IMG/VR virus record: IMGVR_UViG_3300010344_001075
DNA from: an uncultured virus (IMG/VR IMGVR_UViG_3300010344_001075)
Taxonomy: Duplodnaviria > Heunggongvirae > Uroviricota > Caudoviricetes
Strand: one strand, 5' to 3'
Length of the DNA: 64,000 nucleotides
Below the pieces are notes generated by a model. That model was given only the letters and a program-made list of their open reading frames with translations, was not told the origin of the DNA and did no database searches. The first letter of the stretch is position 1. Each line of letters opens with the position of its first letter. A program made the translations under genes and the position numbers. This document shows positions 3,298 to 50,341 of the stretch, piece after piece.

Positions 3298-3346
3298 ATT
3301 TCTTAGATTTAGATTGTTTGTACACTATACTGACACAAAAGGTCAT

Positions 3347-3381
3347 AAAAAAAGGAACAGAGCGTGATGCCCTGTTCCTTT
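3347..3381 (-). terminator. intrinsic terminator
   Basis: Minus strand AAAGGAACAGGGC...GCTCTGTTCCTTTTTTT downstream of 3419..3907. Confidence 0.85.
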
Positions 3382-3418
3382 AAACGTCCCATCCAGTTTT
3401 CTGTTGACTTCCAGTACA

Positions 3419-3907
3419 TTACGCAGCTTTGTTTGCTTTGGCTGCCTTTACTTTGAAAATCCCTTTCTCAGTTAACTCCATGTTACCGAGGTAGTCCGGA
3501 TTTTTTTGAATTTTTGTCCTCCAATAAACTTGTGTCTTAAACGAAGCCACATTGATTTTGGTTTTCAACCCCTGTGCAACACAGAACTCGTTTGCGGCTG
3601 CGATGAGGTCTTCCCATTTTCCGCCCTTGGCTATCAGCTCATCAATTTTTACTGACAGTTTGGGTTTGGCCGGTGCTTTCGGTGCCTTGGCCTTCTTTTC
3701 GGCCTTCGGTTTCGATGCTGCCTTGCCCTTTTCCGTACCCTTCTTTTCTTCGGCAGCTTTGTCTTTTGATTTGTTAATCAACTTCTCTGCCAGTTTGCTG
3801 TTCTGGGGTACCACTTTCTTTGCCAGCGGGTTAGCTGCCTTGTTGGCGGTTTCACTTGACTTTTCTGTTGCTTTTGCAACGCCGTTTTCAATAACTTTTG
3901 CTTCCAT
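3419..3907 (-). CDS. Lys/Ala-rich basic protein, possibly DNA-binding or histone-like
   Basis: KAKAPKAPAKPK low-complexity segment plus a small globular C-terminal part; own terminator. Confidence 0.75.
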   Translation of the reverse strand: MEAKVIENGVAKATEKSSETANKAANPLAKKVVPQNSKLAEKLINKSKDKAAEEKKGTEKGKAASKPKAEKKAKAPKAPAKPKLSVKIDELIAKGGKWEDLIAAANEFCVAQGLKTKINVASFKTQVYWRTKIQKNPDYLGNMELTEKGIFKVKAAKANKAA

Positions 3908-4562: not shown

Positions 4563-6110
4563 AGGTGTCTAAGACGTTTAGGAATAGACAAAAGTACTGA
4601 AAAGGTGTCTAAATATCGCTCTTAACCGCGTTTCGCATAATATCGCCGTACATCGGCACACGCACCTACGGCAGTACAATACAGTACAACATACCCCAAA
4701 CCCCTGGAAAAGGCAAGGAACCGCACCTACCAGGCTCTTAGTGGGCTGTACTGTACAGGGCACACAACCTAGCAGCCTAGCAGCCTACTAATCAAACAAT
4801 ATTGAAAGGTGTCTAAATGCTAATAAGGCTATGTACCATGCCGTATAGTCACATCGAGGGTGTCAAGGTAGGTATAGTAGGCAACAGGCTATAAACATAA
4901 GGAAAAGGCAAGGAAAGGTGTCACACAGGCGAAATAGGCAGCCTAACAGGCACACATGAGGTAGGTGGGTGAGGCACTGACATACGACACTGATGGGCAG
5001 TTGATTAGGTGTCTAAAGGCATTGGCAAGGCACACATAGACAGGGGGTTACACCCAATAACAATACTGATAGGCACAAATTAAGGTCTGCCTACCTCACA
5101 CTATCACCCTGTCACCCAACATGTTACCCACTAACCCAACTGCCTGCCTCACCCAATAACAAATGACATAAGCAGTTCATATCTAATTCAATAGGTGTCA
5201 ACTCTGCCTAATGTCTGCCTTATCAACAAACAAAGTACAGTAAGCAGTAACAATGTCAATAATCAAATATGGCTATCTATCCATGTATGTAATGGCATAT
5301 CACATTACTAAGGTATCAACATAGGCTATAGGTATCAATGTCAACGTAGGCAGTATAACAGGCTAATAAGGTAGGGTAGGTGTCAATGGGTGGGTGGGCT
5401 GACAAGGGGTAGGCGGGTGTCAGGGCGGTAAGGCGGGTGTCAAGGTGGGTGTCAAGGGGGTGTCAAGGGGGTGGGGCGATCTGGGCGCGGGCCGCTGAAT
5501 GGTGCCCTGCCTTTTCTAATGACATTAGGTGCCCGATACAATGCCTTGATGCCTAAGGTGTTATGCCCGTTGACATTTGACATGTGGCTGCTGGGCGGTT
5601 GCCCTATTCGCTTAGGTGTCAGGGCTTTAGGCAGGGCGGGGGCTTGACACCCCCCCGGGCGTTTGACGTGTGTAATTCAGGGCTGCGGCGGAAGGACCCC
5701 TTGATAATTGTCCAAATCTATTTCGTAAAATTAGACATTTTCAAGCCCCACCCTCTGCCCTGACTCCCCTTGATAAAGACATCAATTCCCCTTGACATTG
5801 ACATTAGACACACGACATTAGACATTGACACCTCGACACCTAACGCGATTCCCCTTGACACCGTTGCCCTGATGCCCTTTGATAATTGTAGTGACACCTC
5901 TTGACAAGCCCGTCAGCCCCCTCGACAAGTGTTTATATAGGGGAACGTAAAAAGGTGTCACAAGGAGTATGCGAAATTGACAAGCGACATAGGCTTGATG
6001 CCTTCGCAGCATCGCAGAAAAAATTTGTAAAAAATATTTCGGAAAAATTGACAGGGTGTCACACGGCTATTGACACCTCTTGATACGGCTATTGACACCT
6101 CTTGACACGG
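4563..6110. repeat. GGTGTC/GACACC iteron-rich non-coding region (packaging or origin candidate)
   Basis: About 22 GGTGTC hexamers counted by eye on both strands; 22-bp tandem repeat at 6061-6112. Confidence 0.75.
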
Positions 6111-6227: not shown

Positions 6228-6282
6228 CTGCGTTTACGCAGTAATGCTCGGATGACGTAAGCGAGTAATAATTGACTCCCCA

Positions 6283-6780
6283 ATGGACAGAAGGACACCA
6301 CAACAATGGAATGACAAGCGGCCGCAACAAGCGTACGAGTTGGCATTGTTGGGGGCTACCAATAAGATGATGGCAGACGTCTTCGAAGTCAAGGAACAGA
6401 CAATCGATTATTGGATTAGGACGAAGCCGGAATTCAAGGAGGCTGTCCATCGCGGAAGAATGATGACAGACGCCAAGGTTGCCAAAGCCCTCCTCCAGTG
6501 TGCCACGGGGTACGAATATTATGAGGAGCACGTGGTGATGATTAAGGGTGAGGCTGTTGTGCGGCGAATTAAGAAGGTGGTACCGCCCAATCCTTGGGCC
6601 GCTGCCAAGTGGTTGACAATACGTCAACGGGCCCTGTGGGCTGACGTGCATAAGACAGAGGCAATCAATACCAACGTCAATGTGTTTAAACTTGACTTGT
6701 CAGGGTTGTCAACCGACGAGCTCAAACTTGTCGAGAAATTAGGTATCAAACAACTTACGCAATATGCTGGTGAGAACTAA
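6283..6780 (+). CDS. terS: terminase small subunit
   Basis: N-terminal HTH (GATNKMMADVFEV..TIDYW..PEF), ATGYEY..E, PP..AA..WL motifs; directly upstream of TerL. Confidence 0.9.
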   Translation: MDRRTPQQWNDKRPQQAYELALLGATNKMMADVFEVKEQTIDYWIRTKPEFKEAVHRGRMMTDAKVAKALLQCATGYEYYEEHVVMIKGEAVVRRIKKVVPPNPWAAAKWLTIRQRALWADVHKTEAINTNVNVFKLDLSGLSTDELKLVEKLGIKQLTQYAGEN

Positions 6781-8329
6781 GATGCCGGGTCAAACGGATA
6801 CGCTTGAGAAACGTGCCATACCAAGGCGGGGGAGAGCCAGCAGCGAAATGTTGTTAGAAGCCATCAAAAACCCAACCGCCGTCACCAGGGAGCTTAACAA
6901 TCGCTCCCTTTACCATTTTTTACAACACTTTTGGCCTGTTGTATCGGCACACAAATTTCACGGTAACTGGCATATTGAGTTGATGTGTCGCGAGCTTGAG
7001 CAGGTTGCTGAGCGTGTTGCCGCGCATTTGCCAAGAAAACATGACTTAATTATAAATGTACCGCCAGGGTCAACCAAAACGATTACCTGCTCAATTATGT
7101 TTCCGGCTTGGTGTTGGACCCGTTGGCATTGGATGCGTTTTATTTGTGCCTCTTACTCTTCGGCACTCTCGATGGAATCTGCCGAATATTGCCGCGACTT
7201 GATACGCAGTACGGCATTTCAAGAAATGTACCCCGAAATAGACATCAAGGAAGATAAAGATACGAAATCAAACTTCAAGGTTGTCAAGCGTCTTCCATCA
7301 ACACCCGGGTACATGCCGAAGACATTATCAGGGGGGAGTCGTTACTCAACGTCAGTAGGAGGTACGTTGACAGGGTTCCACGGTGATATACTGATAGTGG
7401 ACGACCCCTTGAATCCGCAACAGGCCGTGTCAGACACCTTACTGCGGTCGGCAAACGATTGGTGTGAGAGAACACTTTCCACACGTAAGACGGACAAAGC
7501 AATTACCGCTACCATATTTATAATGCAGAGACTGCACCAGGACGATCCTTCCGGACACCTGCTTGCCAAAGACAAACGCAATGTCAAACACATTTCTCTG
7601 CCAGGGGAAAGTCTAAATTTTCAGAAGCAAGTAAAACCGCATCAACTGTTACAATATTATAAAGACAATCTACTTGATCCAATTCGTATGCCTTGGTCCG
7701 TATTGAAGGACTTGGAGGCTGACTTAGGCCAATACGGTTACGCAGGGCAGATAGGGCAGAACCCCGTACCGCCCGGAGGGGGCATGTTTAAGGTGGACAA
7801 GATAATGACCGTAGATGGACTTCCAGACGGAGTTTCACGCATTCATACCGTTCGTTATTGGGATAAGGCTGGTTCACAAGGTGCCGGGGCCTTTACTGCG
7901 GGCGGGAAAATGTCTGCTTTATCCAATGGAAAATGGCTCATGGAAGACATGACACGTGGTCAGTGGGGTACGGATATACGGGAGCGTTGGATTAAGAGTA
8001 TGGCTTTGGCAGACACGTCTGAGGTGGTTGTATGGATTGAGCAAGAGCCGGGGTCAGGCGGAAAAGAGTCAGCCGAGGGGACGATAAGGAATTTGGCTGG
8101 GTGGTCTATTTATGCTGAGAGGCCTACGGGAGATAAGATATTTCGTGCCGACCCGTTCTCTGTACAAATTAACAATGGCAATGTGTGGATGATGAGAGGT
8201 GATTGGAACCATGATTTGATTGAGGAACTTCGTTTCTTTCCATATTCTACTTATAAGGACCAGGTGGACGCAATGAGCGGAGCCTTTAATAAATTAGTAC
8301 AAAAGAAAATTTGCAGGAGGGTAACTTAA
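6764..8329 (+). CDS. terL: terminase large subunit
   Basis: INVPPGSTKT Walker A, ILIVDDP Walker B, MQRLH, C-terminal nuclease (YWDKA, DQVDA). Confidence 0.95.
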   Translation: MLVRTKMPGQTDTLEKRAIPRRGRASSEMLLEAIKNPTAVTRELNNRSLYHFLQHFWPVVSAHKFHGNWHIELMCRELEQVAERVAAHLPRKHDLIINVPPGSTKTITCSIMFPAWCWTRWHWMRFICASYSSALSMESAEYCRDLIRSTAFQEMYPEIDIKEDKDTKSNFKVVKRLPSTPGYMPKTLSGGSRYSTSVGGTLTGFHGDILIVDDPLNPQQAVSDTLLRSANDWCERTLSTRKTDKAITATIFIMQRLHQDDPSGHLLAKDKRNVKHISLPGESLNFQKQVKPHQLLQYYKDNLLDPIRMPWSVLKDLEADLGQYGYAGQIGQNPVPPGGGMFKVDKIMTVDGLPDGVSRIHTVRYWDKAGSQGAGAFTAGGKMSALSNGKWLMEDMTRGQWGTDIRERWIKSMALADTSEVVVWIEQEPGSGGKESAEGTIRNLAGWSIYAERPTGDKIFRADPFSVQINNGNVWMMRGDWNHDLIEELRFFPYSTYKDQVDAMSGAFNKLVQKKICRRVT

Positions 8330-8608
8330 ATGGACTTAATTTATCATTTCATTGCCGGTGCTTTTGTGAGCACATTGATTATGTTTATCTTCGGAAAGCG
8401 GGATCCAATAACTGACCAGCGACCTGATCTAATAAAGGCCATTGCCGGGATCTTTCCACTTCTTGTCGGTCTTGGAAAAGAAGCATTGGACAAATGGTGG
8501 GGAGCCGGAAACCCGGAAATTGCAGATGTCACTCTGACTTGGAGTGGCGGTATCTTTGCAGTTGTTGTCATTTTATTCATTGATACTTTTAGAACAGATA
8601 AATACTAA
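8330..8608 (+). CDS. small membrane protein (VanZ/YfiM-like)
   Basis: HFIAG...GKE..D....G....D pattern with 3 hydrophobic segments. Confidence 0.6.
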   Translation: MDLIYHFIAGAFVSTLIMFIFGKRDPITDQRPDLIKAIAGIFPLLVGLGKEALDKWWGAGNPEIADVTLTWSGGIFAVVVILFIDTFRTDKY

Positions 8609-8614
8609 ACAATC

Positions 8615-8818
8615 ATGGGAACAATTTTAACAGGTCGTGTAAAGTTTTTCAACGAACAAAAAGGTTTTGGCTTCATTGCCGGAGATGATGGAACGGATAT
8701 ATTTGTCCATAAGTCAGGTACACTTGATGTGATCAAGAAGGATGATTTGGTTGAGTATGCAACCGAGAATGGAAAGAAAGGATTGAAAGCGGTAAGAGTT
8801 AAACGAATAAAGGAGTAA
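8615..8818 (+). CDS. csp: cold-shock domain protein
   Basis: GRVKFFNEQKGFGFI (RNP1) and DIFVH (RNP2). Confidence 0.95.
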   Translation: MGTILTGRVKFFNEQKGFGFIAGDDGTDIFVHKSGTLDVIKKDDLVEYATENGKKGLKAVRVKRIKE

Positions 8819-8821
8819 GAG

Positions 8822-9184
8822 ATGGCAAACAGTAAAAATGATGGGCATGGGTACAAGTACGCCACGGTTGATACTGCACCGGCCCCCGGTAGTGGAGGAT
8901 ACTACACCTCGGAAGTAGCCCCTCGCAAAGAACAGATTGATCGGTTCTATTTCTCCATTCGGGAAACCTCTCGTGATAGTGTGGCTTCGGTTGTGACTGT
9001 CAAACTTCAGTTCAAGTGTCCCGGGGATACTGATTGGACTGACAAGAAGAATGGGACAGAGGATTGGGCAATCGGAGATCGTGCTGTCATTAATGATTTT
9101 GCTGCGGGAGTTCTTTGGAGAGCAGGTGTTGTTGACAATTCCGATTTTACAAGTGGAAGTGTAACCTTTGGATTTGATTGGTAG
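8822..9184 (+). CDS. hypothetical beta-rich protein
   Basis: 120-aa ORF in the operon, 3 nt before the tail-tube paralogue. Confidence 0.75.
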   Translation: MANSKNDGHGYKYATVDTAPAPGSGGYYTSEVAPRKEQIDRFYFSIRETSRDSVASVVTVKLQFKCPGDTDWTDKKNGTEDWAIGDRAVINDFAAGVLWRAGVVDNSDFTSGSVTFGFDW

Positions 9185-9187
9185 GCA

Positions 9188-10360
9188 ATGGCAAGTGAAG
9201 CATTTGCAGGAGTAGGTACAAAGTTCCAACGATGGGATGGAGCAGCATGGCAAGACATTGCTGAGGTTAATTCCATTGATGGTCCGGGAATGACCAAGGA
9301 CGTTCTTGAGGTTACGTCATTGGATACGGATGCAGGATACAACGAGTTCATTACAGGATTCGCTGAAGGAGGGACTCTCACACTGGATATGAACTTTACA
9401 AGAGAGACCTATGAATTGATGAAAGAGGATTTTGAATCAGATGAGGTGCGGTCTTATCGAATTCAATTACCGGATTATGATTTAGCACCAAGTACATTTA
9501 CAATAGAAGGGTTAGTAATCGAATTACCTATAACGATGACAGCAGATGATAAAGTAACGGCCGACGTTGTTATACAGATAACAAGTCAGGTAATATTGGA
9601 TGATGGGATTTCGTGGAGCACATACTGGACGGCACTAAAAGCAGCTATGACGAATAAGCCTTCACAGGCATACTCAATAGCTGCAAATACATTTATTACG
9701 TCATTAGTTGACGGTGGAGTATGGGCAAAACTTGACAGGTTATTTGTTTTTGCCGCCGAAACAAATGACGGGGGAGAGGCTTTGTTGGATTGGATACATC
9801 CAACAGGCACCCCTGCAATTCTTGCATATGGGAGTGGCGGAAGCGTACCGACATTTACTGCAAATAAGGGATTTAAGGGAAATGTAGCTAATAAGGCATA
9901 TATAGATACTAAATATAATCCAACGTTGCATGCGGTAAATTATACTCAAAACTCCGCATCAATGGGTTGTTATATCAATGAGCTAAGTACGGGTACGGGA
10001 AATCATTTAATGGGTGGGGTGGCTGGTATAAATTATCTTTCTCCAAGATATAACAACGGCCAATTCAGGTGTAATGTTAACGGAGCTGTGGATTGGACCG
10101 CTCAAACAATGCTATCAACTCCATCTCTCGTTTCTGTTGTTAGATCAAATGCGACTACGGTTACTGCATATATAGGAACAACAGCGTTAGCCGCTAAAAC
10201 AATAAATTCGGCGGCTATTGGGAATCATGAAATCACAATACTTACAATAACTACTGCTTATGATAACTCAGAAGTGTCAATGGCATATATAGGGGCGGGG
10301 TTGACAGAGGCAGATATAACAGTATTGAAGAACGCTTGGGACGCTTTTTTTTTGACATAA
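9188..10360 (+). CDS. tail-tube paralogue fused to a C-terminal putative lectin/adhesin domain
   Basis: First ~137 aa align by eye with the major tail protein 31358..31789 (AGVGTKF.RW, MNFTRETYE, ADDKVTADV); the rest is a beta-rich domain in more AT-rich DNA. Confidence 0.85.
   Translation: MASEAFAGVGTKFQRWDGAAWQDIAEVNSIDGPGMTKDVLEVTSLDTDAGYNEFITGFAEGGTLTLDMNFTRETYELMKEDFESDEVRSYRIQLPDYDLAPSTFTIEGLVIELPITMTADDKVTADVVIQITSQVILDDGISWSTYWTALKAAMTNKPSQAYSIAANTFITSLVDGGVWAKLDRLFVFAAETNDGGEALLDWIHPTGTPAILAYGSGGSVPTFTANKGFKGNVANKAYIDTKYNPTLHAVNYTQNSASMGCYINELSTGTGNHLMGGVAGINYLSPRYNNGQFRCNVNGAVDWTAQTMLSTPSLVSVVRSNATTVTAYIGTTALAAKTINSAAIGNHEITILTITTAYDNSEVSMAYIGAGLTEADITVLKNAWDAFFLT
9608..9638 (+). 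repeat. left putative recombination site ATTTCGTGGAG-N14-CACTAA
   Basis: Inverted copy at 11490-11520. Confidence 0.7.
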
Positions 10361-11493
10361 ATCCGGCAACAGAGCTACTGGTGAGAATGAATGACGATAC
10401 CGACCTTTATGCACATGAGAGTCATCTTTTGATTAAGGATGATAGGATATTTCTCATGTATATGAGCAATAAGGAAACATCTACCGAGTGGCAAACTACC
10501 GCTAAAGCAATACTAAAGGTATTTAATTTAAACACACTTGTAAGATTAAAAACATTTGAACTGTTTTATCCGGGATTAGAAGCGGGGGTAACACTTCCCG
10601 CCGACGTGCCAATTAATGTACCGAGAATGTATTTCTATGGTGATAATACGTTAAGATGTTTCTGTCCTAATAGTGCAACTTTATATACAAGAGATGTAGA
10701 TATTTCTGATGGCGATCCCGATAATTGGACTGTCGGGAATATTTCAATCGCTCAGATGACAATGAAGGATACCGAAGGTAATGATGTGGTTGCTGATGTG
10801 ACAAGCGCAAATATATTAACACATTTAGATTATGTTTTGGGTGATGATTATGCGGGATATCACGATCTAATGCCAATGTTCCGAAATCTTGACCCAGTGA
10901 AAGATGGAAGTACATGGTATGCACCAATGGAATTTAATAGTGAGAAAAGCCACACATTAGCATCTCCTACAATAATATGTAAATCTACGGATGCGGGTAA
11001 TACATGGGCTTTCGGTTCACTAATGGGGTATAATCCTTCTGTTTATAGACTTCACCTAACAGAAACAGGAGTTGTTTTAAGCGGAGGTGTTTTACATAGC
11101 CTTTCAAGAGGAACGGCTATGAGGTATGTGACATCAGATGATAATGGCGTGACATGGGTAAGGCTTGCCGATAAAAGCACTGTTGCAGGCCTGACGTATT
11201 TGAGCGCAAAACCATGCTTGATTAGTTACATAGAGGGAGCTACACAAAGAAACGTTCTTGCTATTAATATAACATCCGAGGTTAATGGCAATAGCGGCAG
11301 GACAACACTTGCTATTGTAGAGACATCAGACTTTACCACTTTCACATTGATTAAAAAGATAATAACACCCACCTATTGTCATTATCCTTCACTATGTAAA
11401 TATGGCAGTAGTTTATATATGGCATATACTAAGGGATGGCCGTTAGGTTCTGCAACAGATAGAAATACAATATCATTTGAGAAAATATATTAG
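10336..11493 (+). CDS. Asp-box beta-propeller (sialidase/glycosidase-like); possible -1 frameshift extension of 9188..10360
   Basis: Asp-boxes KSTDAGNTW and TSDDNGVTW, C-terminal HYPSL; overlaps the upstream stop across a T9 run. Confidence 0.8.
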   Translation: MGRFFFDINPATELLVRMNDDTDLYAHESHLLIKDDRIFLMYMSNKETSTEWQTTAKAILKVFNLNTLVRLKTFELFYPGLEAGVTLPADVPINVPRMYFYGDNTLRCFCPNSATLYTRDVDISDGDPDNWTVGNISIAQMTMKDTEGNDVVADVTSANILTHLDYVLGDDYAGYHDLMPMFRNLDPVKDGSTWYAPMEFNSEKSHTLASPTIICKSTDAGNTWAFGSLMGYNPSVYRLHLTETGVVLSGGVLHSLSRGTAMRYVTSDDNGVTWVRLADKSTVAGLTYLSAKPCLISYIEGATQRNVLAINITSEVNGNSGRTTLAIVETSDFTTFTLIKKIITPTYCHYPSLCKYGSSLYMAYTKGWPLGSATDRNTISFEKIY

Positions 11494-11520
11494 TGTAGTA
11501 GCGAATAGACTCCACGAAAT
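11490..11520 (-). repeat. right putative recombination site (inverted) ATTTCGTGGAG-N14-CACTAA
   Basis: Plus strand TTAGTG-N14-CTCCACGAAAT; ends 6 nt before the recombinase ATG. Confidence 0.7.
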
Positions 11521-11526
11521 ATAAAT

Positions 11527-12465
11527 ATGAATATACTGAGAAAATATAAGAAATTTACAGAGATCAGTCCAATGTTTTTGGCAGAGAAACAAATACAGAT
11601 TGTTCATAAGTCATATTTGGCATATACTCGTTCTTCAGATGTATTTACGGAATGGTTACAAAGTAAGAATTATATAGATTTACCAATGCGGAAAATTACA
11701 CCACAAATCATATCTGATTTTTTCATTTACTTAGCTAATGTGCGAAAGTATGATAGACCGACTTGTCAGAAGTATTTTATGACTTTGCGTTCTATATTCA
11801 GATATGCATTACGTATTGGTGAAATAAAGTTTATTCCATTTGATAAAGAACATATAGTATTTCCAAAGAAAGGTAAGGATTGTTCTGCGGCTCTTATACC
11901 ATCTCATATTATGCCTATTTTATTAGAGGATATGCGAGAAAATGATCCTCAATTGTTTTTGGCTTGTATGATGGAATTTTATTGTGGAGCTCGTCCTGGT
12001 AGGGAGATTCGTTTAATACAAGTGCGTAATTTTGATTTGATCAATGGTATTTTAACAATAGATGCCGATAAGACCAAGAATGGTAAAGTTGGCAGAATAA
12101 CAATGAGTGATGATTTTATTGAGATGTGTAAAGCGTATGGTATTGCTGATGCTGCTCCAAATTTATATGTATTTGGTAAAAACAAACACATAGATACCAG
12201 ACCATTATCTGAAAATATGCTCAATTATAGGTTTCATACGTATCGTGCAAAATATCAATTATCAAATGATGTGAAGTTATATTCTTTTAAACATATGGGT
12301 GCTAGTTATCTAGTTCATTCCAAAGTATTAGATATACTTGAGTTAAAAGATCATTTGCGGCATTCTGATCTTAGTGCTACACAACATTATGTAAAGAAAG
12401 TACTTGGGGCTGATAATGCTGCAATAAGAACACAATTTCCGAACCCTTTGAAAATAGCGATATAA
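11527..12465 (+). CDS. tyrosine recombinase (Bacteroidota-type integrase/invertase)
   Basis: CGARP (R), KTK (K), YSFKH (variant of HxxR), LRHS (H), TQHY (Y); SAM-like N-domain; no arm-binding domain evident. Confidence 0.9.
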   Translation: MNILRKYKKFTEISPMFLAEKQIQIVHKSYLAYTRSSDVFTEWLQSKNYIDLPMRKITPQIISDFFIYLANVRKYDRPTCQKYFMTLRSIFRYALRIGEIKFIPFDKEHIVFPKKGKDCSAALIPSHIMPILLEDMRENDPQLFLACMMEFYCGARPGREIRLIQVRNFDLINGILTIDADKTKNGKVGRITMSDDFIEMCKAYGIADAAPNLYVFGKNKHIDTRPLSENMLNYRFHTYRAKYQLSNDVKLYSFKHMGASYLVHSKVLDILELKDHLRHSDLSATQHYVKKVLGADNAAIRTQFPNPLKIAI

Positions 12466-12527
12466 TTGTTCACTAATACACTGTCAGATGAGAATAGATA
12501 AGTCAAATTCAAAAGAAGGAGGAAGTT

Positions 12528-12842
12528 ATGGAACCATGTGCAAAGGAAAAGGAGATAGATCACATTTGTGAAAGGATCGATAAGATTGAAGAGAATATTG
12601 AGGGTAATGGAAAACCAGGTATGAAATTTGAATTAGGTGAAATAAAAATCGAACAGCGCCATATGAACACCTTTCTTAAGGATTTGAACACGAATATGGC
12701 TGCTGTTATGAAATTTATGATTGAATCACAGATGTCTTCAAGAATTAAATTGCAGACACGTGATGTGGTAAATATGGTAATTACGGCCATACTATCTGCT
12801 TCGGCAATAGCAACGGCTTTTATTGTAGCAGGAGGACGTTAA
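12528..12842 (+). CDS. coiled-coil protein with C-terminal TM, putative holin/lysis accessory
   Basis: AGGAGG RBS; single C-terminal hydrophobic helix; directly before the endolysin. Confidence 0.6.
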   Translation: MEPCAKEKEIDHICERIDKIEENIEGNGKPGMKFELGEIKIEQRHMNTFLKDLNTNMAAVMKFMIESQMSSRIKLQTRDVVNMVITAILSASAIATAFIVAGGR

Positions 12843-12843
12843 T

Positions 12844-13266
12844 ATGCCAAGGTTCTCACAAATATCAAGAGATCGACTCCGCACCTGTCACCGAGATTTA
12901 CAGGTGTTGTTTGAGTTTGTTATCATGAATTACGACTGTACCATTGTTTGTGGTCATCGTAATGAGATTGCCCAAAATTTGGCATTTGCTGAAAATCGTT
13001 CACAATTACAGTGGCCTAACTCAAAACACAATACTTGGCCATCAAATGCCGTGGACGTTGCTCCATATGAAACAAGTGGGATTGATTGGGGTAAAACGCA
13101 GTCAGCTTATTTTGCTGGTCGAGTGATGGGAGTTGCCGTAGAGTTGAAACGTCAAGGTTTAATTTCACATGATATACGTTGTGGGATTGATTGGGACAGA
13201 GATAATGATGTGGACGATACCAAGTTTTGGGATGCGTGCCATTTTGAGATAGTACCAAACAATTAA
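12844..13266 (+). CDS. endolysin, M15-family (L-Ala-D-Glu-type) peptidase
   Basis: FS..S..RL..CH.DL, GHR...Q, SKH...PS.AVD, D..HFE motifs. Confidence 0.9.
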   Translation: MPRFSQISRDRLRTCHRDLQVLFEFVIMNYDCTIVCGHRNEIAQNLAFAENRSQLQWPNSKHNTWPSNAVDVAPYETSGIDWGKTQSAYFAGRVMGVAVELKRQGLISHDIRCGIDWDRDNDVDDTKFWDACHFEIVPNN

Positions 13267-13277
13267 ATCAAAACAAG

Positions 13278-13856
13278 ATGAAAAAACTGTTTCTTTTAAC
13301 AATCGTAGTGCTGCTTGCAAGCAGTTGTACTTGTCTGCTTTCGCAGATTCCGCCACAGACTATTCCGGTAAATGCAAATTGTCAGGCTGTTCTTCCGGAT
13401 TATCTTCCAATGGTGCCAGCAACAGATAATTGCGGATTGGCAAGTGTTGTTCAAATACCAGAGGCTGGGTATATCCTTGACGTGGCAAATCAATCGGTAG
13501 AGGTTACAATTCGGGCAACAGACCTTTTTGGTAATTTCAATGAGGTTAGTTTTATGGTCACGGCTGTTGACACAATTAAACCTGTATTGAGTCCCATACC
13601 TGAATTATTATCAGCGAATTGGGATACAATACATAAGGTATATGATGTTGCCGAAAGGCTGGTAGCGGAGCAGGAACAGTATTTTGATGAGCATTTTGAT
13701 TGGGAGGCCGCAGGTATTCCTGAGGATAAGCGTCCTATCAATCAATACGATACAAAAATGCTTTCTGTAATAACTTCCCCGGCTCATGCAAAGACGGGAT
13801 ATGGAAGTCGTGTAATACTGTTTAAGAGTAACAATGATGAATTTATAGTCAAATGA
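13278..13856 (+). CDS. lipoprotein with HYR/Ig-like domain
   Basis: Lipobox LASSC; ATDNCG...VTIRATD.FGN...F.VT.VDT..P pattern. Confidence 0.7.
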   Translation: MKKLFLLTIVVLLASSCTCLLSQIPPQTIPVNANCQAVLPDYLPMVPATDNCGLASVVQIPEAGYILDVANQSVEVTIRATDLFGNFNEVSFMVTAVDTIKPVLSPIPELLSANWDTIHKVYDVAERLVAEQEQYFDEHFDWEAAGIPEDKRPINQYDTKMLSVITSPAHAKTGYGSRVILFKSNNDEFIVK

Positions 13857-14953
13857 AAAAGCTGCTTGTCATACTATTCTTGCTTCCTGCCATACTTTCG
13901 GCTCAGGTTGTTTTAACATATGAAGGGCAAAAGTATGTGGATACCATCTGTGAAAATGTAAATGGGCTCTCCATTCCGCGAACAGAGCAAACGACATTCA
14001 CGTTCAAGAATAATTATGTGCAAGCGTGTAATACAGGTGGCTATATTTTACAGGCGGGGCATGAGTCTCCCAACACGATACTTGATCATAAACTTGATGG
14101 GGAATTAATTGTTGGGAATAAATTTGTCTGGGCTGGTGATCAGAACGCCAATACCATTACGCATGGTATATTTACAGGGTATCAAAACAATGTGCGAATA
14201 ATGTACAACTATCTGGATTATGTTCCTATGGGGATTGTCCGTAAATCTAATGGCTGGACGGATAGCACAGGTGTTGTTGCCTACAATATTATTCGGAACC
14301 CTCCTGCGGTAGGAATTGTAGTGAAGGGGATGAATGGTGTTCGTATTTATAATAACACTTTGTTCAGTGAGGATTCTTTGTATGTAGGTCCGGGTATTGG
14401 CACGTGGAGGGGCTTGATAGATGTGTACGAGAACGACAATCCTGTTGGGAGTGCCAAGGGTGCCAAAATCAAGAACAACATCTTTTACACCAAGAGAAAG
14501 CTCACCAACATCAACGTCATGAATGAATCGTGCCTAGAGGGGTTTGAGAGCGATTACAATATCTTTTGGTGTGAGGAGGGCGAGCCGATGTTCATGATTG
14601 GAGGGAATCGGTTAACCTTTACACAATGGAAGGCTCGGGGGTATGATTTACATTCGATGGTAATGAACCCACATTTCAAAGATTTTGTTAACTTTGTTCC
14701 AGAGTTTAGAATTCAATGGGGTACTCCAACTGAATTTGATATGGGCATTGCCATGTCAGATTATTGGGCCGTTGGGTTTGATCCGGTACTTGTAAAACAG
14801 GATGGGTATTGGCAACAAGGTGCCAGAATTTATGAAGGGGATTTGGTTATCTTTTACCGAGGTGGTCGGTTGCTTGAGGGTGATTCTACTAATATTCCTC
14901 TCAAGACTGGCAAGGTGGTAATTAAACAAGGTGAAATTGAAATACAACAGTGA
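13853..14953 (+). CDS. secreted right-handed beta-helix protein (pectate-lyase-like fold)
   Basis: Signal peptide; repeated RIYNNT, KIKNNIF, SDYNIF strands. Confidence 0.75.
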   Translation: MKKLLVILFLLPAILSAQVVLTYEGQKYVDTICENVNGLSIPRTEQTTFTFKNNYVQACNTGGYILQAGHESPNTILDHKLDGELIVGNKFVWAGDQNANTITHGIFTGYQNNVRIMYNYLDYVPMGIVRKSNGWTDSTGVVAYNIIRNPPAVGIVVKGMNGVRIYNNTLFSEDSLYVGPGIGTWRGLIDVYENDNPVGSAKGAKIKNNIFYTKRKLTNINVMNESCLEGFESDYNIFWCEEGEPMFMIGGNRLTFTQWKARGYDLHSMVMNPHFKDFVNFVPEFRIQWGTPTEFDMGIAMSDYWAVGFDPVLVKQDGYWQQGARIYEGDLVIFYRGGRLLEGDSTNIPLKTGKVVIKQGEIEIQQ

Positions 14954-15768
14954 TGTGCAGAAATTGGTTTTCAAAAGAGGAGCCGGTATTTAATCCGGCC
15001 TCGTTTCGGATGATGTCATTCGGAAAGAATACCTATCCTGGTGGTAACAGTTTGCCCGGATGTGTTAATGATACGAATTTTCTGTCGGCTGATATTGGTC
15101 ACCAATTTGGTGGGGATATTCGTAAGTACACTGAATGGAAGGCAACTGCGAAAAGGTATGTTCAAAATACCAATACTGCGATTAGTGTACTTAGTCCGGG
15201 AGCCACGGTTGCCATAATAGCGGATAGTTGTTTTTCTGGGGGGATACTTCGTGCAAACCCACACGTCCCAATGCATAATGGGCATCCTGTTTACAACAGG
15301 TTTTTACCCAATCCTGATATTAAACCGGGCCTTGTTGTTGAAAATCATTTTGCCATTCGTTCGGATCTTCATTGGCTTGTTATAAGTGCTTGTCAAGAAC
15401 ACCAAACGGCTATGGATGCTTACTTTAGTGATATTAAAACCAACATGGGTGCATTAAGTTACAGTCTTCGTAAGTCACTCGTAAAAGGAATGACTTGGCA
15501 GGAATGGGTTAATGCGGCAATGGTTTTACTTGCATACCATGGTTTTGCACAGATTCCAATGTTTTACGGGCCATTGGAGAAGAAACATGAAATTATCGGT
15601 TCAAGCGAAACCCTTATTATTCATAATTCTTCCCATGGTTCTCAGCGGAGGGATTTGGATGGGGATGAAGTTGATAAACTTGATGAAACTATTGAGTTGG
15701 ATACTTTCGTCCTTGATGATACGTTGAATGCAATGTTGCAGAATATACCAAAAAAATTAGCGTCATGA
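14950..15768 (+). CDS. metacaspase-like (C14) peptidase with rearranged motif order
   Basis: LPGCVND, ADSCFSG, SACQ..Q.A.D, GALS, and SSHGSQ..D.DGDE.D..DE located at the C-terminus. Confidence 0.85.
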   Translation: MMCRNWFSKEEPVFNPASFRMMSFGKNTYPGGNSLPGCVNDTNFLSADIGHQFGGDIRKYTEWKATAKRYVQNTNTAISVLSPGATVAIIADSCFSGGILRANPHVPMHNGHPVYNRFLPNPDIKPGLVVENHFAIRSDLHWLVISACQEHQTAMDAYFSDIKTNMGALSYSLRKSLVKGMTWQEWVNAAMVLLAYHGFAQIPMFYGPLEKKHEIIGSSETLIIHNSSHGSQRRDLDGDEVDKLDETIELDTFVLDDTLNAMLQNIPKKLAS

Positions 15769-16163
15769 CAACACAACAATTCTTTAAAGGCTTATTTATG
15801 GCCTTGGTAACAGTGGTAGTCGCGGCTTTTAGTCAACAGCCGATTGATTACCTTCTTCTCGCAGTAACGGCAGTAAGCACCATATTGGTGTATTCTGGAA
15901 AGAATCTTATTGCCGTTTTGCATTCTGACTCTCCAGCAGGGGCTCTCAGTTGGATAAACCTACTGTCTGGTATTCTTGTTGCCGTTGGTACGGGAATTCT
16001 ACAGGGGGTTGGAATATACTTGGTAGAGGGCACCATTATATGGTCCCTTGTATGGCGGGTTGTCCTATCGGCAGCATTTACATATCTTGGTACCACCTTC
16101 TTTGCACCGGAGCATAATGTAACCAAGCTGCGAGTATTTGGCAGTGTACGAAAAGCCGCTTAA
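15765..16163 (+). CDS. holin-like 4-TM membrane protein
   Basis: Four hydrophobic helices in two internal repeats; basic C-tail; end of the lysis block. Confidence 0.6.
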   Translation: MTTQQFFKGLFMALVTVVVAAFSQQPIDYLLLAVTAVSTILVYSGKNLIAVLHSDSPAGALSWINLLSGILVAVGTGILQGVGIYLVEGTIIWSLVWRVVLSAAFTYLGTTFFAPEHNVTKLRVFGSVRKAA

Positions 16164-16220: not shown

Positions 16221-17714
16221 GTGATGGAACGAACGAAAGGAATAGTCAAACAAGATGCCGGGTTGGTAGCCTACGCCCAATTACTTGGTGACCTTGTTGG
16301 GAGGATGCAACTTGCCACAACACTTGGCATGCAATACGCGGGAGAGCGTGATATCTATAAAGCCTTGGGGTATCCACAGACAAGTGATTTAAAATTTGAA
16401 GATTATTACGGTAGGTATTGTCGGCAGGATATTGCGAAGGCTGTTATTGACAGACCGGTTCGTGGTACGTGGCAAGGTCCACTTGAGTTAATTGAATCAG
16501 AGGAAACAAAAGATACAGAGTTTGAAAAGGCCTGGGTTGCTTTAAATTTGAAGCTCAGTTTAAAAGCAAAGCTTTCTAGACTTGATAGGTTAACCGGTCT
16601 TGGGCGGTATGGGGTTCTTTTACTTGGACTTGATGATGTTTCCACACGTGAAGGGTTTGAAAGACCTGTAAAGGAGGGGGCTCGTACTTTAAAATATGTT
16701 AAGCCTTTTGGAGAAACCAGTGCAAAAATACTTACCTATGTCACAAATCCAAGTGATGAGCGTTTTGGATTACCATTGATGTATTCCATTGAAACGGTTA
16801 ATATCAGTACAGGTGCAACAATACTGACAAAGGTTCACCACTCACGAATGTTACACGTAACAGATGAGGCGTTAGAATCAGAGATATACGGTATTCCTCG
16901 ATTACAATCCATCTATAACCGCTTGATGGATTTGGATAAGGTTATCGGCGGGGATGCTGAGATGTTTTGGCGGGGTGCCCGTCCTGGGTATGAGGGTAAA
17001 GTTGATCCTCAATATACGATGACTCCTAAGGGGCGGGAAGATTTAATTTCACAGATATCGGAGTATGAGAACAATCTACGCCGTATCCTCATAAATGAAG
17101 GGGTTGAATTAAAATCATTAGCACAACAAATTGCCGACCCCTCTCCACACTTTATGGTAATACTCCAAGCAATATCGGCAGAGACTGGAATACCTGTACG
17201 GGTGTTAACAGGCAGTGAACGTGGTGAGTTAGCAAGTTCACAGGATGCTGGGGAATGGAAGGCCTACGTACAAGCCCGCAGGGAGGAGCACGCGGAGACT
17301 AATATAATACGCCCACTTGTAGGGATGCTCCTTAAATACGGCGTTTTACCAAGCCTTAAGACGGAAAATTACACGGTTAAGTGGAACGACCTGTACTCCC
17401 TTAGTGAAAAGGACAGAGTTGAGATTGGTAAGTCAAGGGCTAATGCTTTACGTGAATACACATACAGTCCAATGTCTGAGGCTATTGTTCCGCCGGATGC
17501 CTTCTTTGACTTGTTCTTAGGGTTGACCCCGGAACAGATTACACTTATCCGTGAGCAACGTGATGAGCTTATTTCACAAGAAGACTTGTATGACAAGATT
17601 TTGGAAGAGTTGGAACCTGAGCCTGTTGTGATGCCAGGGCAGTCTCCGGCAGGTGGTGCAAAGAGCACACCGGCCAAGCCGACAAAGAAGAATACGATGA
17701 GTAGAACAAAATGA
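16221..17714 (+). CDS. portal protein (DUF1073-like)
   Basis: Size, position and motifs (R.DIA..VID.P, HHSR.LH, GIP.RVLTGSE.G). Confidence 0.85.
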   Translation: MMERTKGIVKQDAGLVAYAQLLGDLVGRMQLATTLGMQYAGERDIYKALGYPQTSDLKFEDYYGRYCRQDIAKAVIDRPVRGTWQGPLELIESEETKDTEFEKAWVALNLKLSLKAKLSRLDRLTGLGRYGVLLLGLDDVSTREGFERPVKEGARTLKYVKPFGETSAKILTYVTNPSDERFGLPLMYSIETVNISTGATILTKVHHSRMLHVTDEALESEIYGIPRLQSIYNRLMDLDKVIGGDAEMFWRGARPGYEGKVDPQYTMTPKGREDLISQISEYENNLRRILINEGVELKSLAQQIADPSPHFMVILQAISAETGIPVRVLTGSERGELASSQDAGEWKAYVQARREEHAETNIIRPLVGMLLKYGVLPSLKTENYTVKWNDLYSLSEKDRVEIGKSRANALREYTYSPMSEAIVPPDAFFDLFLGLTPEQITLIREQRDELISQEDLYDKILEELEPEPVVMPGQSPAGGAKSTPAKPTKKNTMSRTK

Positions 17715-18679: not shown

Positions 18680-19426
18680 ATGCCAAGAGGTGTTTATATA
18701 CATAAAAAAGGAAGGAAAATAACTTGGGGTGATAAAATATCTGAAGCTTTAAAAGGTCATACATTTTCGAAAGAACATAAATTACAATTAAGTGAATGTC
18801 ACAAAGGGTATGTTATGCCTGAGGCACAAAAGGAAAAGATACGAAAATCTTGTTTAGGAAAGAATAAAGGTAAAAAAATATCTGAGGAACATAAGAATGT
18901 GCTTCGTAATATAAATAAAGGAAGGCAGCTATCTGAAGAAACAAAAAGAAAGATTGGTAATAAATCAAGAGGTAGACATCATACAAAAGAAGCCAAAGAA
19001 AAAATTAGGAGATTTACAACAGGTAGAAAAAGACCAGAATTGACAGGGGACAAGAATCCAATGCACACCCATCCCAATTCATATAAATCTAAATTTGGAA
19101 AATGTGGATATAGACAAGATATTGGAATTTTTGTAAGATCAAGGTGGGAAGCAAATGTATATAGAATATATAAGTATTTGGGATATAAAATTGAGTATGA
19201 ACCAAAATCATTCAAACTTTCTGATGGTAGAACGTACCGTCCAGATTTTTATATCAAGGAATTAAATTTGTGGATAGAAGTAAAAGGATGTTGGTTAAAA
19301 GATGCAAAAAGTAGATTTGATTTATTTCAATTGGATTATCCTGAAATAAATATTCAGGTGATTGATCCTCTTAAATATAAAGAATTATTACAAACATACT
19401 CAAGTAAAATAAATATGGAAGGGTAA
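18680..19426 (+). CDS. free-standing homing endonuclease: NUMOD3 repeats + PD-(D/E)xK nuclease
   Basis: Repeated SEE(H/T)K.KI motifs; RS.WE, YEP, Y.PDF, IEVKG; AT-rich DNA. Confidence 0.85.
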   Translation: MPRGVYIHKKGRKITWGDKISEALKGHTFSKEHKLQLSECHKGYVMPEAQKEKIRKSCLGKNKGKKISEEHKNVLRNINKGRQLSEETKRKIGNKSRGRHHTKEAKEKIRRFTTGRKRPELTGDKNPMHTHPNSYKSKFGKCGYRQDIGIFVRSRWEANVYRIYKYLGYKIEYEPKSFKLSDGRTYRPDFYIKELNLWIEVKGCWLKDAKSRFDLFQLDYPEINIQVIDPLKYKELLQTYSSKINMEG

Positions 19427-22673: not shown

Positions 22674-23165
22674 ATGGAACGTACAAAAAAGAATGAGAAG
22701 CCTCCGGAAAATGAACCTGAGGTTCCTGAAACACCTGAGGTTCCTGAAACACCTGAGGTTCCTGAAACACCTGAGGTTCCTGAAACACCTGAGGTTCCTG
22801 AAACACCTGAGGTTCCTGAATCCAAGGAAGAACCAATTCCTGTTGACCCCGATCCGATTATAACATGGAAGAAAACCGGAGGGGGCTCACTTCGCCTTGC
22901 TAAGCGATTAATTCCCCCTGGGGCAACGTTTAAGGCCCGGGTAAGTGAGATACCCAAAGGGTTCCGGGATGTGGTTATTCCAATGGAGCTCATACCAGAG
23001 GCACAACAGGTAACAGTACCTCCGGTAAAGTCAGCCTTCCAGGTAGTACCACGTGGTAAGAGCAAGTCAATGTTTGACATCATTGGTGCGAATGGTAAGC
23101 GGATGAACGAACAGCCCTTAACAAAGGCCGTTGCGGAACGTCTTAAAGCCGACCTGGAAAAATGA
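22674..23165 (+). CDS. hypothetical head-associated protein with PEVPET repeats
   Basis: Follows the capsid gene; repeat-containing N-terminus. Confidence 0.75.
   Translation: MERTKKNEKPPENEPEVPETPEVPETPEVPETPEVPETPEVPETPEVPESKEEPIPVDPDPIITWKKTGGGSLRLAKRLIPPGATFKARVSEIPKGFRDVVIPMELIPEAQQVTVPPVKSAFQVVPRGKSKSMFDIIGANGKRMNEQPLTKAVAERLKADLEK
22716..22823 (+). repeat. 18-bp tandem repeat CCTGAGGTTCCTGAAACA x6 (last copy ends TCC)
   Basis: Direct reading. Confidence 0.95.
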
Positions 23166-23869
23166 CCTGGCGAGTTCCTAAAATATGGGAAGGTGGTGAT
23201 GTTTGGATCATAGGGGGAGGCCCGTCTGTGCCTCGTCAATTTGATGTTCCTGAGGATATCATTCAAAAGGTAACTCAAGGGACTCTCCCTCCAAACGCCT
23301 ACTCACCCTATATGCATCCAATACATGACAAGCACGTCATTGGTGTAAATATGTCATATAAACTTGGCATGTGGATAGATGTAGTAATGTTTGGGGATAG
23401 TGGGTTTTTCCTTAAAGAAAGAAATGGTTTAGCAACCTTTCCCGGAATCAAGGTTTCATGTAATACAGGCAGCCAAGGAGAGCGGTGGATTAAACATCTT
23501 GGAAGAGATGGCTCTCATTCAAAAGGGATAAGTACCAATCCAATGTTGGTGGGATGGAATGGTAATACAGGTGGGGCGGCAATCAACCTTGCCGTTCATA
23601 TGGGGGCTAAACGGATTTTACTCCTAGGCTTTGATATGAATTTGGATGGTACACGCATGCAACACTGGCATGATTTGTATGGAAAAGGACCTGTATTGGA
23701 TGAGAGGAGAAAGAGAAAACTGCCATTTTCTAGGCATATCACGTCCTTTTCGTTTATTGCGGCAGACGCTAAGAGGCTTGGTGTAGAAATCATCAATCTA
23801 TCCCCAGGCAGTTCAATTAATGATTTTCCTAAGATGTCCGTTAAAGAATTTTTACTTGATACGAAGTGA
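23162..23869 (+). CDS. Maf/DUF115-like putative glycosyltransferase
   Basis: IIGGGPS, IGVN, N(T)G..AINLA..GAKRILLLGFD. Confidence 0.7.
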   Translation: MTWRVPKIWEGGDVWIIGGGPSVPRQFDVPEDIIQKVTQGTLPPNAYSPYMHPIHDKHVIGVNMSYKLGMWIDVVMFGDSGFFLKERNGLATFPGIKVSCNTGSQGERWIKHLGRDGSHSKGISTNPMLVGWNGNTGGAAINLAVHMGAKRILLLGFDMNLDGTRMQHWHDLYGKGPVLDERRKRKLPFSRHITSFSFIAADAKRLGVEIINLSPGSSINDFPKMSVKEFLLDTK

Positions 23870-23870
23870 C

Positions 23871-24656
23871 ATGAATATTGTTAAGTTGGCAGGGGGATTA
23901 GGTAATCAATTATTCCAATACGCATTCGGAAGAGTTGTACAAGAATGCAGTGGAAATAAAACGGCGTATGATAAAACGTGGTATGATACAACTCGTATCC
24001 CTCCTAGGCCTTATGTGTTAGGTCAATTTCAAGTAGAGGTTCCCACATCAGGTTATTTAAAAACAGGTAAGGTTGTGGAGAAGATAAGTGAAGGGATCCC
24101 CTCCTTGTATGTTGATAATAAATATTTCCAGGGATATTGGCAGAACCCTGATTTGTACAGTTTCAAATTGATAGAGGAATTTCGTGAACAGTTTCATGTG
24201 CGGCCACAGTATCAAACCGCTGCGTTTTTAGAATTACGGAAACAAGTACAATCTTGCAATTCAATTGCCCTCCATGTACGTCGTGGGGATTATCTATTGC
24301 ATCCAAATCATTTGGTATTGCCTTTACAGTATTACCAAAATGCTTTATCTTACATGGACGCAATGAAAAAGAATACCGAGGTATTTGTATTCAGTGATGA
24401 TTTGGATTGGTGTCGAGAAAATTTTATGGATTGTCACTTTGTAGAATTGGGGGATGAATGTTTGGAATTTGATTTAATGAGATCTTGTAAACATTTTATT
24501 ATTGCCAATTCTACGTTCTCTTGGTGGGCTGCTTATTTATCATTGAATGCCACTATTATTGGGCCGAAGCGGTGGTGGCGGAGTAATGTAAATGGATTTG
24601 GTGTTTATGAGAAAAGAATGAAGCGTAATGATTGGTTAAACATATCGTTATCGTAA
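23871..24656 (+). CDS. GT11 alpha-1,2-fucosyltransferase-like
   Basis: GGLGNQLFQYA, GYWQ, HVRRGDY, FSDD..WC, IANSTFSWWAA. Confidence 0.92.
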   Translation: MNIVKLAGGLGNQLFQYAFGRVVQECSGNKTAYDKTWYDTTRIPPRPYVLGQFQVEVPTSGYLKTGKVVEKISEGIPSLYVDNKYFQGYWQNPDLYSFKLIEEFREQFHVRPQYQTAAFLELRKQVQSCNSIALHVRRGDYLLHPNHLVLPLQYYQNALSYMDAMKKNTEVFVFSDDLDWCRENFMDCHFVELGDECLEFDLMRSCKHFIIANSTFSWWAAYLSLNATIIGPKRWWRSNVNGFGVYEKRMKRNDWLNISLS

Positions 24657-50128: not shown

Positions 50129-50341
50129 TCATCCTACAGGCCTCCCCCCTACGAATTTTGAAAACTCCCGAGCTTCCTCTTTCGTAATGAAGCCAGCCTT
50201 GTAAAGTTGGGATGCATGAAACGGACGGTCATCCGGGCTACAATAACGCAGTAGAATAATTGGATCCATTTGTTCAATTACGGAACCTAGATTTTTGTGC
50301 ACGGCATGCACGGCTCTTTTTAATGCTTTCAACTGACTCAT
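50129..50341 (-). CDS. hypothetical protein
   Basis: 70-aa ORF with ATGA overlaps. Confidence 0.6.

Follow-up and report, generated by a model that had tools for sequence, protein, structure and literature searches.

The segment between positions 9,188 and 12,465 of a 64,000-nucleotide stretch of DNA from an uncultured virus of the Caudoviricetes (IMG/VR record IMGVR_UViG_3300010344_001075; the whole stretch is referred to below as the window) carries a second gene for a tail-tube protein, fused to a lectin-like and probably also to a sialidase-like cargo, and directly behind it the gene for a small tyrosine recombinase (Table 1). The first 140 residues of the open reading frame (ORF) beginning at 9188, termed TTP2 here, agree with the canonical tube protein of the window at 85 of 140 positions (61% identity, E 3e-58, 2 gap positions), and TTP2 scores 29 bits against the Pfam family Phage_TTP_12 (PF16461; cut-off 26.1) over residues 18-131. 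Both tube proteins match phrog_158, annotated as 'major tail protein', TTP2 with an E-value of 8.5e-18. The TTP2 gene lies 22 kb away from the tail module. A preliminary description of this DNA, made from its letters alone, had proposed a second tail-tube copy at 9188, and on this point it was right.

Table 1. Genes, domains and sites in and around the cargo slot, in the order of their positions in the window.
Feature	Position	Strand	Remarks
TerS	6283-6780	+	
TerL	6764-8329	+	
Accessory and lysis block	8330-16163	+	between TerL and portal
Conserved 120-aa protein ending ..TFGFDW	8822..9184	+	precedes the cargo slot in relatives
TTP2 ORF, 390 aa	9188-10360	+	tube domain and cargo domain X
TTP2 tube domain, residues 1-140	9188-9607	+	similarity to canonical tube protein; Phage_TTP_12, phrog_158
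Left site	9608..9638	+	linker codons I-S-W-S-T-Y-W (9608-9628) and CACTAA; DNA identity with relatives ends here
Cargo domain X	9629..10360	+	ConA-like lectin/glucanase jelly roll (AlphaFold model, Foldseek)
T9 run (U_UUU_UUU)	10345..10353	+	candidate -1 frameshift or transcriptional slippage site; joins TTP2-X to propeller
Six-bladed propeller, GH33-like sialidase	10354..11493	+	-1 frame; internal ATG at 10387; predicted model, Foldseek
Right site	11490..11520	+	stop-rich 3' cargo motif TTAGTGTAGTAGC and box ACTCCACGAAAT (inverted copy of left 11-mer); 24/26 nt kept in L014/L023
Tyrosine recombinase, 312 aa	11527..12465	+	PF00589, Phage_int_SAM_5; R156-K184-Y252-K255-H279-Y288
Right edge of variable slot, ACTGTCAGAT	12480..12489	+	~40 nt before conserved MEPC.. 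gene (12528-12842)
Portal	16221-17714	+	followed by head genes and glycosyltransferase cluster, then connector genes
Canonical tail-tube protein, 143 aa	31358-31789	+	phrog_158; adjoins phrog_344 and phrog_337; chaperone and tape-measure genes downstream
Tape measure, 2384-aa ORF	32671-39825	+	

Beyond the tube domain, TTP2 continues into cargo domain X (residues ~148-390), which AlphaFold models as a jelly roll (pLDDT 71, pTM 0.78) and which Foldseek places among the ConA-like lectin jelly-roll domains of solved structures (TM ~0.5, E 6e-07). The TTP2 frame terminates with ..NAWDAFFLT-stop directly after a run of nine T, and the -1 frame, open from 10336 to 11493, is modeled as a six-bladed propeller (pLDDT 74.7, pTM 0.80) that retrieves many GH33 sialidases (TM ~0.6, E 6e-10). 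As modeled, the propeller is a GH33-like sialidase fold; the sequence profile itself does not place it in GH33, with 15.8 bits against Pfam BNR_2 and a cut-off of 31.4. Structure prediction, one of the checks suggested in the preliminary description, hence yielded a lectin-like jelly roll and a sialidase-like propeller, and together with the profile and sequence matches it upholds the anatomy given there, from the tube paralog through the two cargo folds to the tyrosine recombinase.

The propeller had been listed as a gene of its own; its fold stood, but its separateness is doubtful. The TTP2 and propeller ORFs probably form one gene that is read with a frameshift, as is suggested by the slippery run that closes the short ORF and by an extension that is open in the shifted frame, the arrangement of TpeX-type frameshifts. 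In P0004, P0009 and P0010 a single frame encodes both the lectin domain and the propeller, and P0002, 80% identical, terminates in the same ..AFFLT. The T9 run is unchanged in the assemblies L021 and L022, which are identical to the window across 13,255 and 16,936 bases and for this reason are not independent of it; a diverged contig of run X2 shows 17 substitutions and no insertion or deletion over the T9 region (10255-10452).

The recombinase scores 36.2 bits against PF00589 (cut-off 27.1) and also matches Phage_int_SAM_5, with its SAM-like domain beginning at residue 18. In an alignment with XerA (4a8e), Y252 takes the position of the first His, K255 that of the second Arg, and Y288 that of the nucleophilic Tyr; the enzyme departs from the canonical R-K-H-R-H/W-Y active site at Y252 and K255 and has kept R156, K184, H279 and Y288. 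All six residues are invariant in the 35 aligned members of a family that comprises at least 100 clusters, and to our knowledge all well-studied tyrosine recombinases possess an Arg where this family has a Lys. Its dN/dS ratio, where measurable, lies between 0.06 and 0.09, indicative of strong purifying selection. The best NCBIfam models, XerA with 49 bits and XerC with 44 bits, remain far below their cut-offs, the integron integrase model TIGR02249 reaches 17.1 bits against a cut-off of 265 and thus gives no IntI-type assignment, and a PDB sequence search with the recombinase alone gave no match. Integrases of the IntDOT type measure ~400 aa and possess an N-terminal arm-binding domain ahead of their SAM-like and catalytic domains. 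The likeness to this type drawn in the preliminary description could not be retained for an enzyme of 312 aa that has no arm-binding domain, whose nearest models, XerA and XerC, score below cut-off, and whose active site is non-canonical.

Genes of this family mostly keep the same place. In the window, and in L014, L026, L027 and L028, the latter being all four recombinase-selected loci with enough upstream DNA, the recombinase gene comes straight after a cargo gene with the linker, and the same order of cargo and recombinase recurs in 8 of the 10 distant mid-contig loci examined. Its position might reflect nothing more than lysogeny, with the conserved box in front of the recombinase gene serving as attP and the cargo slot representing a moron hot spot beside it. 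Integrases do usually adjoin attP; the 26-nt non-coding unit is conserved and present as a tandem duplicate in L014, L001, L027 and L028; and the more distant homologs of the recombinase (26-35% identity) are often found no more than a few hundred bases from the end of a contig. We nevertheless consider a role as lysogeny integrase highly improbable. The relative L027 encodes, near a tRNA-Met gene (7878-7951), a second integrase of 449 aa (6268-7617; SAM_5 and catalytic domain); the pair probably marks a prophage end and this relative is probably temperate with two recombinases. The separate integrase means that the small enzyme is therefore not the lysogeny integrase there. The size of the enzyme and its want of an arm-binding domain count against such a role as well, and integration at the box would split the TerL-portal operon. 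The window phage itself is a lytic-style siphophage: its minus strand encodes a self-sufficient replication module (split DNA polymerase, clamp, clamp loader, UvsX-like, RuvC-like and SbcCD-like genes), and no repressor family was found among the 26 window proteins searched. Finally, a scan of 185,579 species genomes for the recombinase returned a single locus, L029, from a metagenome-assembled genome of Sphaerochaeta. We rejected it as a host locus, since at the end of its contig (9950-10194) a glycine-cleavage P-protein gene passes without a break into a fragment of the recombinase; the junction is probably an assembly chimera formed at a shared short word.

The cargo is bracketed by two sites, of which the left one reads ATTTCGTGGAG-N14-CACTAA and the right one TTAGTG-N14-CTCCACGAAAT. 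This 31-bp pair is the longest among 91 inverted pairs in the region 8000-14000, with 22 of 31 positions complementary; the inverted match at the two module boundaries amounts to 11/11 and 6/6, and 5 of 14 positions match in the central 14 bp. The exact 11-mer occurs at only two places in the 64-kb window, both of them at these sites, and the observed alignment score was reached by about 1 in 1000 shuffles of the right region, and then by 0 of 2000; the direct-orientation control was never significant. The right site holds the TAG stop codon (11491-11493) and ends 6 nt before the ATG of the recombinase at 11527, all as the preliminary description had stated for the position of the sites, the stop codon and the gap. 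Its remark that the enclosed 1.9 kb is AT-rich is partly true, in relation to the left flank, with a GC content of 0.38-0.44 versus 0.45-0.49; the right flank beyond 12750 has ~0.41, and the low-GC outlier is the recombinase gene with 0.31-0.35. No inverted repeat of significance was found around the recombinase gene itself (P >= 0.08 in 6 of 6 loci; the 11-mer of L028 falls in a signal-peptide coding region), and direct repeats between the left and right boundaries were not significant in any of 6 loci. A likeness noticed by eye, in which the 3' motif TTTAGTGTAGTAG would be a stop-bearing direct copy of the 5' motif (11/13 against the left site of L159), was not relied upon. Direct partial copies of the 5' linker DNA are seen after the cargo stop in L159 (~3340-3430, ..TCGTGGAGT..) and in L155 (~5905-5930, ATTTCGTGACAG); these could be scars of a lost next cassette.

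Such a pair of inverted sites raises the possibility of an invertible switch of the Rin kind, in which the recombinase would flip the 1.9-kb segment between the 31-bp sites and TTP2 would be made either with its decoration or as a bare tube subunit, ISWSLFATTLIYFLK-stop. The reading frame does survive inversion, and the opposite strand reads precisely the bare tube product that the preliminary description had predicted. The repeat exceeds chance in L014 as well (1 of 2000 shuffles), where both copies persist as islands amid unrelated flanks and cargo, even though synonymous sites between the recombinase genes of the window and L014 are saturated (pS 0.83); despite this saturation, 24 of 26 nt of the unit upstream of the recombinase are kept in L014. 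In L001, the right box and the recombinase have decayed together. Moreover, a constant N-terminus, a variable part, a tyrosine recombinase and 11-bp sites make up a layout that matches what is described of the Rin shufflon (PMC6109161). An inversion switch is still, in our judgment, distinctly unlikely. A significant inverted repeat is present in 2 of 14 recombinase-bearing loci, the window and L014, and missing from the other 12, so that the expected conservation of the sites in relatives holds for L014 and fails for the remainder. The 13 other loci, each with its own cargo, are all in forward orientation; a contig of the likely source run covers 8300-12809 without a break; and the contigs of four runs, in which minority forms would be hidden, contain no strand-changing joint. 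The opposite strand offers no alternative C-terminal gene, since ISWS would be followed by 11 further codons and no inward ORF of at least 50 aa starts from 11520. The two sites have different centers, the active site departs from the canonical pattern, and relatives keep diverse cargo with the recombinase decayed or absent.

Exchange of the cargo is evident from the relatives. A homology search with TTP2 yielded 13 loci, and in L001, L002 and L004-L007 the tube domain is 92-98% identical to that of the window, yet the cargo is different; at least four unrelated cargos sit on near-identical tube domains. In L001, L002 and L004 (tube domain 92-97%) the DNA identity ends right after ATTTCGTGG, and each of them continues with ..x-x-Y-W and a different cargo, which is GH43/GH32-like in L001. 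The window-type lectin cargo is found at 80% identity behind the leader MPGISVSKIPIPFNKGGG-ISWSSYW in P0002, and in a contig of run X2 it follows ..NKGGG-ISWSS, with a loose end before 9621. In a contig of X2, the propeller gives way to other DNA after 11499. In contigs of run X3, the tube joins another linker after 9591, and the recombinase site from 11490 onward has other DNA in front of it. That related phages should carry different cargo behind the ISWS motif had been set beforehand as a check on the idea of an exchangeable cassette, and the outcome is clearly positive. Judged by these sequence comparisons, the slot is a hot spot of module exchange, with breaks at the linker codons on the left and at the stop-rich motif TTAGTGTAGTAGC on the right.

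The surroundings of the slot are conserved. Homologs of the 120-aa protein encoded in front of TTP2 are found directly upstream of the cargo gene in L001, L003, L005, L011, L017, L151, L152 and L159; this protein has no Pfam, PHROG or NCBIfam match, and an Atlas search gave viral hypothetical clusters only. On the other side, homology among loci with and without the recombinase resumes at the right edge, ACTGTCRGAT. A scan of viral contigs with an alignment of the lectin domain found no relative, and a blastn search with positions 8000-13500 against 50,697 phage records gave no match. Three loci, L003, L005 and L011, use another, acidic linker, VLDVGSTVPAEESE, and contain two or three tube-fusion genes in tandem with different cargo; none of the three has the recombinase, which is absent from the 48 kb of the L011 contig with its tube paralogs. 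The C-terminal parts of these tandem fusions (L003, 939-5249; L005, 8001-11249; L011, 8001-12095) are LamG-like, FN3-like, beta-helix-like and others.

The linker G-[IFM]-[SN]-W-x-x-Y-[WC] opens the cargo in 8 contexts and 13 rows of our comparison. Ahead of it stands a TTP_12 tube domain, a Phage_tail_2-type tube domain (L102) or a short leader such as MGLWNGIGNGIGRKKSG (L027, L028), and with regard to these contexts it is a general adaptor. Its amino acids are conserved, and its codons vary synonymously in places (GGG/GGA/GGT, ATT/ATA). The Ser codon, however, is TCG in 9 of 9 rows from seven lineages and, once X2 (TCG) and L153 (AGT) are included, in 8 of 9 lineages, a codon with a share of 9-11% among Ser codons, and the Tyr codon is TAC in 12 of 13 rows. 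The near-fixation of TCG and TAC therefore speaks for a constraint on the linker as DNA or RNA in addition to protein. At the other end, the stop codon of the cargo lies inside TTAGTGTAGT(A/T)GC in the window, L014, L024/25, L026, L027 and L028, and L001 has GAGTAGTAGC; in L014, L001, L027 and L028 the 3' motif is followed by a second unit, GTAGTAGCAAATA(G/A)A. The cargo ORF of L014 (1-120) has no in-frame ATG, GTG or TTG upstream of ISWSSYC; an ATG at 42-44 is in another frame that reaches a stop after five codons, and the leader is either broken or needs a frameshift.

One might ask if the recombinase has any part in this traffic. The cargo could be swapped solely by general homologous recombination, driven by a UvsX-like system or by that of the host, at the short conserved linkers, in which case the 11-mer repeat would be a by-product of the coding motif and the recombinase leader. 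Several findings suit this explanation: exchange goes on where the recombinase is dead or absent (L001, L017, L102, L047, L051), L003, L005 and L011 have varied their cargo without one, the linker is preserved as protein while some of its codons vary synonymously, the window phage encodes UvsX-like, RuvC-like and SbcCD-like genes of its own, and a CGAAAT box near the recombinase start, also found in L157 and L159, could be an expression signal. We hold a bystander role of the recombinase to be unlikely, as it leaves unexplained why this enzyme family stays directly behind cargo genes down to 38-46% identity under strong purifying selection, why the rare TCG codon is nearly fixed in the linker, and why an inverted match of 11/11 and 6/6 falls exactly at the module boundaries.

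The explanation that we favor, and to which we give an even chance of being correct, regards the slot of the window as a recombinase-associated cargo-exchange slot for the decoration of the tail tube, in which modules are swapped at two conserved boundary motifs and the unusual recombinase is the likely agent. According to this proposal, gene 9188 would produce a second tail-tube subunit, with the G-I-S-W-x-x-Y-W linker joining the tube domain to the ConA-like lectin domain, and a -1 slip on the T9 run, as its sequence suggests, would extend a fraction of the product with the GH33-like propeller. By analogy to TpeX and SPP1 gp17.1*, TTP2 subunits may co-assemble with the bare tube protein, so that part of the tail would carry a decoration that both binds and cleaves glycans. 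The odds are about even that the recombinase targets the linker-coded DNA together with the box before its own gene, thereby exchanging cargo between phage genomes or, in this lineage, flipping it. Of the recombinase-driven switch or cassette exchange put forward in the preliminary description, the repeat beyond chance and the exchange of cargo have thus held up; the inversion was not seen in contigs, and no alternative C-terminus was found.

A number of findings weigh against the favored explanation. The second catalytic Arg is replaced by a Lys, an uncommon substitution that might alter or weaken catalysis. Internally deleted remnants of the recombinase are present in L001/L019 and in L017, where the cargo is intact. 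A 15-mer search with the 3' motif unit fetched 80 loci, of which 77 were chance matches and the other three, L047, L051 and L102 (3/80), have the extended motif at the cargo stop and no recombinase within 3.5 kb. The synteny of cargo and recombinase among distant homologs was examined in 10 of the 80 loci listed. Comparison across the family revealed no core sequence that the left boundary has in common with the right one, and the scarcity of significant inverted repeats, pointed out above for the switch, counts here as well. Sharp breaks where conserved sequence ends are also expected from general homologous recombination, for which the window phage has its UvsX-like recombinase. No inverted or excised form was found in 3 identical assemblies, 13 other loci and the contigs of 4 runs, a contig-level comparison of low power. 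With respect to the decoration itself, no RNA structure was found downstream of the T9 run (z 0.26), so that slippage of the polymerase on this run is as likely as slippage of the ribosome.

A more far-reaching proposal, which is possible and which we advance with more doubt than confidence, extends from the window to the family. The small and widespread R-K-Y-K-H-Y recombinases, a linker-coded site (..TCG TGG AGY .. TAC TGG) and the stop-bearing 3' motif might constitute a plug-in cassette system that places start-less, promoter-less glycan-active modules behind a resident virion anchor, either a tube domain or a short leader; in function, such a system would serve sludge and digester phages as an integron or shufflon for decorating the virion. 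In the R64 shufflon (Rci) and in integrons, a tyrosine recombinase whose gene adjoins the array puts start-less and promoter-less segments behind an expressed part that stays constant. The loci studied here differ from these systems in that they have no repeated-site array, no attC-like folded sites and no integron-type integrase.

The window is a near-complete siphophage genome, from an activated-sludge type of habitat according to the run labels, and contains no tRNA gene. Several genes outside the slot deserve mention. Between the head and connector genes lies a cluster of glycosyltransferase-like genes (23162-29590), one of which matches a PHROG named alpha-2,3-sialyltransferase, and a nucleotide-sugar epimerase is encoded on the opposite strand (50338-51288); these are of note in a phage whose tail decoration would be sialidase-like. 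The block between TerL and portal further encodes a caspase-like (Peptidase_C14) protein (14950-15768) and a beta-helix lipoprotein (13853-14953), both of which are conserved in relatives. A NUMOD3/endonuclease-like gene, likely a homing endonuclease, lies between a Mu-F-like head gene and a scaffold/protease gene (18680-19426). The DNA polymerase (phrog_17) is split into two ORFs (58860-60248 and 60562-61779), which correspond to consecutive portions of the profile and are separated by a 116-aa ORF.

Each element of the slot has a known counterpart. The closest is the Rin shufflon of Bifidobacterium prophages, for which a phage tyrosine recombinase, a virion protein with a constant N-terminus and a variable C-terminus, and 11-bp asymmetric sites at the junctions are described, along with several variable C-terminal genes that lie in either orientation; inversions were detected both between genomes and in virion DNA (PMC6109161). 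As far as that description goes, both systems have a tyrosine recombinase that flanks a constant-N/variable-C virion-protein gene with short junction sites. Here, however, a single cargo lies on one strand, an alternative C-terminus is lacking, and inversion was not seen; a tail-tube paralog acts as carrier, where Rin has the receptor-binding protein, and a Lys replaces the second catalytic Arg. The same account describes for Gin, Cin and Min (Mu, P1, p15B) how site-specific recombination changes the C-terminus of an adsorption protein by means of serine invertases and at least two alternative C-termini in opposite orientation (PMC6109161); the window differs from these systems as described there in possessing a tyrosine recombinase and no alternative C-terminus.

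With regard to the decorated tube, a programmed frameshift is reported to provide some tube subunits with a C-terminal carbohydrate-binding extension, thought to aid host binding, in TpeX of lactococcal 936 phages and in SPP1 gp17.1* (PMC6669499). In these cases, as reported, the extension derives from a single tube gene, whereas the window uses a separate paralog 22 kb from the tail module, and the cargo here includes an enzyme-like propeller and is exchanged between relatives. Some actinobacteriophage clusters have two major tail proteins as well, both encoded in the tail module (gp17, gp19) (PMC11080557); the passages of that report on the two tube genes describe neither an exchangeable cargo nor a recombinase. 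The 'two major tail proteins' of JBD30 were set aside as a precedent for a paralog, because the expression refers to neighboring subunits. The novelty of the slot lies in how its parts are combined: a tube paralog serves as the carrier, and it is accompanied by a universal linker, a 3' motif that bears the stop and a recombinase of the R-K-Y-K-H-Y type. Full-text searches of open-access papers did not turn up this combination.

In the phages studied here, a separate tube paralog carries interchangeable lectin and enzyme modules, and as many as three of these carriers stand one after another in relatives. The arrangement suggests that phages possess a general, modular means of adjusting how they first meet the glycans on the surface of the host. 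If the recombinase does move the modules, it would be the second phage-encoded tyrosine recombinase system for adsorption proteins, after Rin, and would offer a new natural tool for the site-directed swapping of protein domains.

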